A DNA stretch of 64,000 nucleotides from Octopus vulgaris (Eukaryota). Position numbers and translations under genes: made by a program. Positions 43,260 through 53,843 of this stretch are shown here, one piece after another. The notes below the pieces were generated by a model. It ran no database searches and was not told where the DNA came from. It was given only the letters and a program-made list of their open reading frames with translations. Within the stretch, counting starts at the first letter, position 1, and the number at the start of each line of letters is the position of its first letter. The stretch spans positions 496,001-560,000 of the forward strand of contig OX597840.1 in NCBI GenBank assembly GCA_951406725.2, read 5' to 3'.

Positions 43260-43659
43260 ATGTTTCAACATACGATTTCACATCAAAAATCTTGCAAAAC
43301 AAATATATAAACGTAATAATAATAATACTTTGTCACATAGGCAGATGACATGAAATTTGTATCGAAGTGAAGAGTCAAATATCCTGTCTCTAGCACATGC
43401 CATGTACATTACCTAATTGATACCGAAAGGTGAGGTAAATGTGATCTTGGAGTAATTTAAAGTCAGAACTTAAACCGCTGTATGTATATAATGCAAGACA
43501 ACTTGCCTCAGGCTTGAATAATTTTAGGAAATTCTAAAACGAAAGACAACCTGGAATCATGTGTCATTCAGTTGCTAATAATTACTTTAGAACTCCACGT
43601 GGTGTGGCGAGCAGAGATAAGGCGCCACCACGTCTAGTAATCGAATCTACGATCAAATA

Positions 43660-44435
43660 TATTTCTTTACTACCCACAAGGGGTTAAGCATAGAGGAGAC
43701 AAACAGGGACAAAGGGAAGTCGATTACATCGACCCCAGTGCGAAACGGGTACTTCATATATCGACCCCCGAAAGGATGAAAGGCAAAGTCGACCTCGGCG
43801 GAATTTGAACTCAGAACGTAACGACAGACGAAATACCTATTTCTTTACTACCCTCAAGGGGCTAAACACAGAGAGGACAAACAAGGACAGACAAAGGAAT
43901 TAAGTCGATTATATCGACCCCAGTGCGTAACTGGTACTTATTTAATCGACTCCGAAAGGATGAAAGGCAAAGTCGACCTCGGCGGAATTTGAACTCAGAA
44001 CGTAACGACGGACGAAATACCTATTTCTTTACTACCTACAAGGGGCTAAACACCGAGGGGACAAACAAGGACAGACAAAGGGATTAAGTCAATTCTATCG
44101 ACCCAGTGCGTAACTGGTACTTAATTTATCGACCCCGAAAGGATGAAAGGCAAAGTCAACCTCGGCGGAATTTGAACTCAGGACGTAACGACGGACGAAA
44201 TACCTATTTCTTTACTACCCACCAGGGGCTAAACACCGAGGGGACAAACAAGGACAGACAAAGGGATTAAGTCGATTATATCGACCCCAGTGCGTAACTG
44301 GTACTTTATTTATCGACTCCAAAAGGATGAAAGGCAAAGATGGCCTCGGCGGAATTTGAACTCAGAACGTAACGGTAGACGAAATACCGCTAAGCATTTC
44401 GCCCGGCGTGCTAACGTTTCTGCCAGCTCTCCGCC
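43660..44435 (-). mobile_element. SINE family B array: one head plus four tandem bodies, within a single ~14-bp TSD
   Basis: Units 43660-43837, 43838-44021, 44022-44204, 44205-44388; head 44389-44435; TCTACGATCA(A/T)ATA at 43646-43659 and 44437-44450. Confidence 0.92.
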
Positions 44436-44570
44436 CTCTACGATCATATAGTCTTGACTATAACTTACGCATGCACTTACTCAGAAAGAGATGCACGTTA
44501 ATATAAACACTCGTACATGCATAAATACGTCCATAGAAACCTTCCAGGTGTATTATATTTAGTAGCTCTA

Positions 44571-44790
44571 TACTCTCTTTTACTTGTTTTCAGTCAGTTG
44601 ACTGCGGCCATGCTGGAGCACCACCTTTAGTCGAGCAAACTCGACCCCGGGACTTATTCTTTGTAAGCCCAGTACTTATTCTATCGGTCTCTTTTGCCGA
44701 ACCGCTAAGTGACGGGGACATAAACACACCAGCATCGGTTGTCAAGCAATGCTAGGGGGACAAACACACACACACACACATGCATATAAA
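44571..44790 (-). mobile_element. SINE family A, 3' half
   Basis: Tail and 3' body present; truncated at the internal microsatellite. Confidence 0.88.
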
Positions 44791-53059: not shown

Positions 53060-53239
53060 GTATTAACGGCAGCGTCAGCAAAAAATATCTGAGCTGGAAA
53101 ATGATGGAGAATAACATTGGTTGGTGTTGAAATAACAGCGGTGGAGTGATGGTGGTGGTGGTGGTGGTGATGGTGGTCGTGGTAGGAGGGAGTAGAGATG
53201 TGTGACGACTAAAGAATATTTAATATTTAAAGATATGAA

Positions 53240-53824
53240 GGCGGCGAGCTGGCAGAAACGTTAGCACGCCGGGCGAAATGCGTAGCCGTATTTCGTCTGC
53301 CGTTACGTTCTGAGTTCAAATTCCGCCGTGGTCGACTTTGCCTCTCATCCTTTCGGGGTCGATTAAATAAATACTAGTTACGCACTGGGGTCTATATAAT
53401 CGACTTAATCCCTTTGTCTGTCCTGGGTTGTCAACTCTGTGTTTAACCCCTTGTGGGTAATAAAGAAATAGGTATTTCGTCTGCCGTTACGTTCTGAGTT
53501 CAAATTCCGCCGAGGTCGACTTTGCCTCTCATCCTTTCGGAGTCGATAAATTAAGTACCAGTTACGCACTGGTATATATATATGTAATCGACTTAATCCG
53601 TTTGTCTGTCCTTGTTTGTCCACTCTGTGTTTGGCCCTTTGTGGGTAATAAAGAAATAGGTATTTCGTCTGTCTTTACGTTCTGAGTTCAAATTCCGTCG
53701 AGGTCGACTTTGCCTTTCATCCTTTCGGGATCGATAAATAACGTACCAGTTGCATACTGGGTTCGATCCAATCGACCGACGCCCTCACCAAAAATTTCGG
53801 GTTTTGTGCCTAGAGAAGAAAATT
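53240..53824 (+). mobile_element. SINE family B array: head + two young-tail bodies + one old-tail body
   Basis: Junctions GAAATA|GGTATTTC at 53470/53471 and 53658/53659; the third body ends in GTGCCTAGAGAAGAAAA. Confidence 0.9.
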
Positions 53825-53843
53825 ATATTTATAGATATGAAAG

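Follow-up and report, generated by a model that had tools for sequence, protein, structure and literature searches.

How does a SINE come to stand in tandem behind a single head, with every unit joined to the next at the same base? This question is raised by an array in Octopus vulgaris (assembly GCA_951406725.2, contig OX597840.1), which occupies positions 43646–44450 on the minus strand of the 64,000-nt stretch that we analysed (contig positions 496,001–560,000; hereafter the window). The original prediction had described one head and four bodies inside a target-site duplication (TSD) of about 14 bp, an identical junction in both arrays of the window, a 6-bp inverted repeat at the junction, and a 3′-most body that is the most decayed. 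We recovered all of these features when the coordinates were re-derived (Table 1), the two TSD copies differing by one mismatch. The array consists of one 47-nt head and bodies of 184, 183, 184, and 178 bp, and TRF reported a period of 184 with 4.0 copies and 90% matches. The window contains exactly five occurrences of the junction 14-mer (at 43830, 44014, and 44197 on the minus strand, and at 53465 and 53653 on the plus strand), the chance expectation being 0.88 matches even at two mismatches.

The divergence of units 1 to 4, determined at non-CpG sites of positions 68–231 of the 231-nt SINE (the numbering used throughout), was 4.5, 3.0, 1.5, and 5.5%, respectively. Unit 1 is thus the second-most diverged, and the array shows no steady gradient. 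Body 4 is likely the original element. Judged by its alleles, body 2 may possibly, though not certainly, be a chimera of units 1 and 3 that arose by local unequal exchange. Two contigs from sequencing runs labelled with other organisms match this locus: one (X2) covers the 3′ end of the array at 43300–43681 with one difference, and another (X17) covers the head and its flank at 44406–44570 with 12 differences. A second, unrelated high-copy repeat with very high contig depth lies just to the right (44588–44745). In the array at 53.2–53.8 kb, the third body carries a different, older tail type and had been overlooked in the original prediction. Its two young-tail bodies likely arose by local duplication, as suggested by their allele comparison. 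At least six SINE pieces of mixed ages and both orientations are crowded into the 1.4 kb between 53240 and 54620.

Table 1. Features of the two SINE arrays, in positions of the window.
Feature	Position	Strand	Remarks
TSD of the four-body array, 5′ copy	44437–44450	−	13 of 14 identical to 43646–43659
SINE head, single copy (element positions 1–47), A-box-like motif	44389–44435	−	box assigned by eye against the consensus
Body 1 (positions 48–231; B-box-like motif, core, LINE-shared tail), 184 bp	44205–44388	−	
Body 2, 183 bp	44022–44204	−	allele table: 59C in common with body 3, 195C/199G with body 1
Body 3, 184 bp	43838–44021	−	lowest divergence (1.5%)
Body 4, 178 bp	43660–43837	−	highest divergence (5.5%), two small deletions
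TSD of the four-body array, 3′ copy, 14 bp	43646–43659	−	one mismatch to the 5′ copy
Head of the second array	53240–53286	+	young-type 43G/48C variant
Two young-tail bodies of the second array	53287–53658	+	three rare alleles in common (allele comparison)
Terminal body of the second array	53659–53824	+	older tail type (O1)
TSD of the second array	about 53223–53239 and 53825–53841	+	

The element itself is a short, non-coding, dispersed SINE of very high copy number. A TSD was detected at 49 of 73 young monomers, compared to one in the null, with a mean length of 16 bp. The last ~40 nt of the SINE closely resemble the end of a LINE family. The head may be tRNA-like, to judge from A- and B-box-like motifs that were read by eye against the consensus; ARAGORN reported no tRNA anywhere in the window, and Rfam gave no relevant match. 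The core presumably resembles that of Meta and Sauria SINEs. The consulted part of a published account lists no MetaSINE for octopus (PMC4824008). The majority sequence is free of any run of four T residues, and such a run is present in unit 1 of the window array. Folding placed a stem-loop at positions of about 31–58.

Genome-wide, the 18-mer spanning the junction gave 44,881 exact matches and its reversed control gave none. A pattern leading from the tail to the B box with a free gap of 0–30 nt, which covers breaks at about positions 40–70 only, gave 45,955 matches. Among the matches listed, 93 of 100 had the canonical spacing, six kept the junction but had an indel or a tail repeat close to it, and one belonged to another class. 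Thus, the break is fixed, and the scattered breakpoints that would have spoken against the predicted self-insertion were not found in this range. A second class, in which the tail is joined to head position 15, amounted to 2,278 exact matches; 26 of its 33 parsed chains terminate in an old tail type. The suggestion that the inverted repeat, or a GAAAUA/UAUUUC pairing, aids the joining was not supported, as the position-15 junction contains no inverted repeat and the hairpin does not form in the folded 80-nt junction. Most of our loci came from one contig (C1) and were chosen by exact patterns. Sixty-seven junction-selected arrays comprised 46 dimers, 13 trimers, six tetramers, and one array each with five and six units. 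In the flanks of loci, which are not fully unbiased, the position-48 junction follows 23 of 45 T-variant tails, exceeding the 20% at one target that is taken to mark the SINEU type. Tandem arrays that contain the SINE with periods of 264 and 196 bp, unlike the 184-bp arrays, were observed at C1:7184653-7186034 and C2:183811798-183812319.

Insertion into genomic copies was seen directly. Head positions 49–58, followed within 20 nt by a new head, were found at 257 exact genome matches, and we read 29 non-overlapping double-head loci of this kind. At 22 of them, a duplication of at least 11 nt from position 48 flanks the new copy, and at 11 of these 22 both copies of the duplication carry the same non-majority letters (only a common CpG change in three cases). 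Five of the 29 loci had no downstream junction, and two remained below the threshold. The new copy sits in an old head in 16 cases, at an existing inner junction in ten, and in an unclassified context in three; the outer TSD of the old element was retained in five of the 16 old-head cases. Insertions at position 48 thus duplicate about 11–20 bp of the target, starting at this position. We conclude that the SINE inserts into head position 48 of existing genomic copies, and the prediction that new copies enter an existing head time and again at one fixed site was borne out, the target being duplicated around the new copy. The ten inner insertions show that the site is reused inside arrays and not only at their head end. 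Unit 1 was not younger than unit 2 either (3.3 vs. 2.9% in 38 arrays of three or more units), so that the predicted growth at the head end only has to be given up. In one further locus (L029, 1152–1560), a young copy lies reversed inside about positions 43–64 of an older SINE head, and between this copy and its TSD stand ~29 nt that belong to a second unit.

If arrays form by insertion into existing copies, what is their last unit? In 27 of the 67 junction-selected arrays, it has a different tail type from the units before it. Exact matches to the commonest old tail type, O1, were preceded by a junction in 2,186 cases and by a head in 631, the two patterns differing somewhat in strictness. The core of terminal O1 units diverged by 6.2%, compared to 3.0% for the first young unit (terminal unit older in 75 vs. 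14 of 95 pairs, p = 1e-12), which equals the 6.8% of O1 monomers (p = 0.55). Even in all-young arrays the last unit was older than the first (4.3 vs. 2.7%; 45 vs. 21 of 68, p = 0.0004). Clades were absent among terminal O1 units, only four of 3,003 pairs having at least three rare alleles in common. Two or more rare alleles were common to the units in four of 140 dimers and in 16 of 3,000 random pairs. Thus, the last unit of an array is an older, independent SINE copy. Positions 56–60, which lie outside the search patterns, were the better conserved in terminal O1 units (5.9%, against 12.6% in O1 monomers; p = 0.005), and past position 100 the two groups showed no difference in conservation. 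Measured against the core, run X11 (another organism) had lower junction and young-tail bins than runs X2, X16, and X17; this is a weak hint, from contig depth and not copy number, at a smaller young burst in the X11 lineage.

Since the units of dimers are independent and of different ages, both rolling-circle synthesis and a multimeric master are excluded as the origin of dimers. The original prediction had offered the former, besides template-jump reverse transcription, as its alternative: a circular 184-nt RNA, closed by the 6-bp inverted repeat, would be reverse transcribed repeatedly. The exact joint between the end and position 48, as well as a few headless arrays of near-identical units (L001, L037), would suit such a circle; the different tail type at the end of many arrays and the position-15 junction, which has no inverted repeat to close it, would not, and we regard it as hardly credible. 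If a single ancestral dimer had given rise to copies that dispersed and lengthened through unequal exchange, the invariant junction would be a matter of inheritance. Whole arrays can indeed move, and local duplication is real in 16 of the 38 longer arrays. Terminal units of several tail types, twice as diverged as the preceding unit and not grouped into clades, argue against this reading, as do the scarcity of common rare alleles in dimers and the double-head insertions, which recreate the junction anew. Overall, a dimeric master appears very improbable. Units that are always each other's closest relatives, or arrays that all descend from one multimer, would have contradicted the prediction of independent insertions; neither was found.

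An insertion at position 48 should leave two heads, and yet double heads are rare. Outside the selected set, a SINE piece lies just upstream in five of 177 headed arrays, so that about 97% are single-headed. Thus, a step that joins the new cDNA to the old head would have to be very efficient. To examine the origin of the single head, we compared 82 young+O1 arrays, 77 young monomers, and 47 O1 monomers, excluding loci selected for an exact head; all p-values of these head tests are nominal. The young-type 43G was found in 37 of 74 young monomers, 22 of 78 young+O1 arrays, and one of 47 O1 monomers (p = 0.008), and the young-specific 48C was scarcer in young+O1 arrays than in young monomers (p = 0.014). 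At head positions 3–22, divergence was 6.2% in young monomers, 8.5% in young+O1 arrays, and 10.8% in O1 monomers (p = 0.017), the bodies being equal. Outer TSDs, compared in a fixed window, contained 1.06, 1.51, and 1.62 mismatches per 10 nt in young monomers, arrays, and O1 monomers, respectively (p = 0.031); free alignment gave 7.2, 8.5, and 12.1%, which places the arrays nearer to the young class. Position 19 gave no significant old-head signal (p = 0.36), and 43G, counted by eye in genome listings, did not differ clearly (31 of 99 vs. 36 of 100). Position 27 was rejected as an old-head marker: its p of 0.03 in small samples was gone against a matched control (54 of 1,165 vs. 5 of 100). Inheritance of positions 48–63 of unit 1 from the target fitted few arrays.

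These data bear on joining at the level of RNA or cDNA, in which reverse transcriptase on an old transcript would stall at the hairpin near position 48, or the RNA would be cut there, and switch or be ligated to a young transcript, so that the chimera inserts only once. Such joining would account for the prevalence of single heads, and the stem-loop lies over the right positions. Heads are mostly young-type at positions 43–64, which exceeds the prediction from annealing at the cut end alone, one of the TSD estimates looks young, and some arrays moved whole, as in L072 and L087, where an inner duplication brackets the entire multimer. However, chimeric RNA cannot yield the order of old head, inner TSD, new head, and outer TSD, and under it heads should be young throughout and TSDs young as well; the observed heads and TSDs are both shifted towards the old state. 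It would also leave the tail-specific second site and the target bias in unique DNA (see below) unexplained. We therefore consider it unlikely; the evidence leans towards a DNA-level origin for a large share of the arrays, mixed with arrays moved whole.

Longer arrays have an additional source. At least two rare alleles were common to neighbours in 16 of 38 arrays with three or more units, in disagreement with the earlier view that tandem duplication plays no part. In middle units, the 5′ part tends to match the next unit and the 3′ part the previous one, which is the mark of unequal exchange. Longer arrays in which neighbours share no such alleles look like products of further insertions. At one locus (L088, region of C1:194001253), three tandem heads spaced by 65 nt precede four or more near-identical bodies, a local duplication of head plus TSD.

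What, then, picks the site? The nucleotide at position 219 distinguishes two tail variants. T219 is carried by 160 of 180 tails ahead of the position-48 junction, and C219 by 26 of 33 parsed position-15 junctions and, by eye, by 85 of 100 among the matches listed. The variants are also followed by different bases in unique DNA, where GG stands after 36 and AG after one of 85 T-tails, and GG after three and AG after six of 37 C-tails, at a background of 3.8% for GG and 5.5% for AG. For these counts, GGTA-selected loci were left out, and 40 of the loci were hand-picked non-SINE ends, with some TA runs and duplicates skipped. Non-junction ends inspected by eye among the genome matches listed gave about 38 GG and no AGA for 72 T-tails, and about six GG and 24 AGA for 78 C-tails. 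The upstream, pre-existing TSD copy starts with GG in 13 of 29 cases (one of them an old SINE head); thus, the GG bias resides in the target as it was before insertion. The 29 pre-insertion sites have no shared motif upstream of the site. Two tail variants with two sites, whose matching bases are also favoured in unique DNA, point to RNA–DNA pairing as the guide. The matching bases would be supplied by read-through RNA that pairs with the nicked target, as proposed for R1; a sign of read-through was found at two of 27 loci, which end 26–31 nt into a second unit before the TSD. TA runs take a large share of the insertions of both tail variants among the matches listed. Under a read-through model, they would be a third self-reinforcing class of targets.

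The LINE family that shares the SINE's last ~40 nt comprises 4,617 candidates, and its matches include named Argonauta sequences. The copies in L225, L056, L371–L400, and L461–L470 are broken and about 85–88% alike. Relatives of this LINE encode endonuclease, RT, and zf-RVT domains, and its motifs suggest that it may belong to the Tx1 clade. Presumably it mobilises the SINE. Neither GGTA nor the SINE head site follows any of 30 LINE copies, so the LINE does not have the SINE's target; the bases behind the copies are mostly CATATC-like and usually belong to a TATC-type microsatellite. This partner might nevertheless recognise the head sequence itself by its endonuclease, as target-specific Tx1 elements do, and RNA pairing would be dispensable. 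SINEs mobilised by target-specific Tx1 elements exist, according to the consulted part of Kojima (2015, PMC4494074), the domain layout of the partner is compatible, and a cutting preference would likewise produce the GG bias in upstream TSD copies. On the other hand, a single endonuclease should neither send two tail variants to two unrelated sites nor leave its own LINE copies in front of other bases. The site is also reused in both head and junction contexts, and the pre-insertion sites offer no common upstream motif to be recognised. Targeting by the endonuclease is thus about as doubtful as joining at the RNA level. Alternatively, two different partner LINEs may act with different endonucleases, one per tail variant.

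Taken together, we propose that, at tens of thousands of loci, young SINE copies came to occupy position 48 of older ones. Target-primed reverse transcription is the likely route, and pairing of the nicked target with the RNA just 3′ of the SINE tail is the likely guide. We assign this reading a probability of roughly 0.6; we are more confident of self-insertion at a fixed site, and less so of guidance by RNA and of the way in which a second head is lost. In such a scheme, the LINE with endonuclease, RT, and zf-RVT would mobilise the SINE through the common tail. As the majority SINE has no T4 run, Pol III would read through into the next unit or the flank. In RNA from an array, the tail would then be followed by the first part of the next body; insertion at position 48 duplicates the target from that position. 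Since this 3′ extension matches every SINE head, arrays would seed more arrays, and the second tail variant would do likewise at position 15. The new cDNA would join the old head by homology, either at insertion or by later deletion, resulting in one mosaic head inside the old TSD. Some longer arrays subsequently grew by local duplication, and some arrays moved whole, as seen at the loci described above.

Parts of this scheme have precedents. For R1 and R2, LINEs of the 28S rDNA, the consulted part of Stage and Eickbush (2009, PMC2718515) describes a proposal that the RNA 3′ end carries flanking target sequence and pairs through it with the cut bottom strand, which leads to invariant 3′ junctions; off-target copies at target-like sites, precise 5′ joins due to upstream target sequence in the RNA, and a 14-bp TSD are reported as well. 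The likeness lies in the proposed mechanism, that is, a target-matching RNA 3′ end that pairs with cut DNA. The octopus element differs in being a non-coding SINE with its own head as target instead of a host gene, in having about half of its insertions elsewhere, and in using two tail variants for two sites. SINEU-3 of crocodilians, mobilised by Tx1-Mar, targets the Mariner DNA transposon; the LINE has the same target, the choice of which is attributed to the endonuclease, and SINEU-3 tandems are full-length, as far as the consulted part of that paper states (Kojima, 2015, PMC4494074). Both SINEs use a fixed site inside another repeat and form tandems by sequential insertion around a TSD. In contrast to SINEU-3, however, the octopus SINE targets itself, its LINE does not have that target, and the second head is lost.

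Squamate SINE-derived satellites (PMC10702118) and the TSD-(SINE)n-TSD arrays of the clam S. broughtonii (PMC11481361) resemble the octopus arrays in their tandem partial SINE units at many loci, longer terminal units, and a single TSD. The consulted parts of these reports describe the units as internal segments and attribute them to unequal recombination, the first clam unit having a cut tail. In octopus, by contrast, the exact 3′ end is preserved in every unit, the two units of a dimer are independent of each other, and an array is short, with 2–6 units. Units of a SINE-derived satellite stem from local amplification and resemble their neighbours, which applies to the few dimers and the 16 longer arrays with common rare alleles only. 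Head-to-tail multimers of rodent B1/B2 and the jerboa Dip SINE, which make up to half of the copies, mix families, and have been suggested to arise by nested insertion, are, in the consulted part of PMC8466645, full-length units joined at the tail with no fixed head site. Nor did we find the position-specific monomers of equal age from few masters that characterise Alu-like dimeric SINEs. The literature searched, which extended to sources other than Repbase, Dfam, and subscription papers, contained no report of a self-targeting SINE or of such arrays, and a repeat library may already include this structure. By analogy, the octopus arrays would combine an R1-like mechanism with a SINEU-3-like outcome.

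The role of RNA–target pairing at LINE and SINE 3′ ends is described as unsettled (PMC13295347, consulted part of section 4.1). With two tail variants, apparently one LINE tail, two sites, and tens of thousands of events, the octopus SINE makes the pairing question directly testable. Somewhat short of even odds, we suggest that the bases which immediately follow the SINE tail serve as a guide that is passed on by inheritance, comparable to the primer-binding site of a prime-editing RNA. Target choice would then be inherited and self-reinforcing: two lineages would have locked onto two sites in their own head, and about half of a very large burst would have ended up in self-nested arrays, by which older SINE families are overwritten and a working promoter is restored wherever an array forms. 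For the SINE, inserting into itself would provide a safe harbour; it would also offer a way for dispersed copies to become tandem repeats, and the resulting mosaic copies would confound the annotation and dating of repeats. If the RNA is the guide, the partner LINE would be a naturally retargetable inserter.
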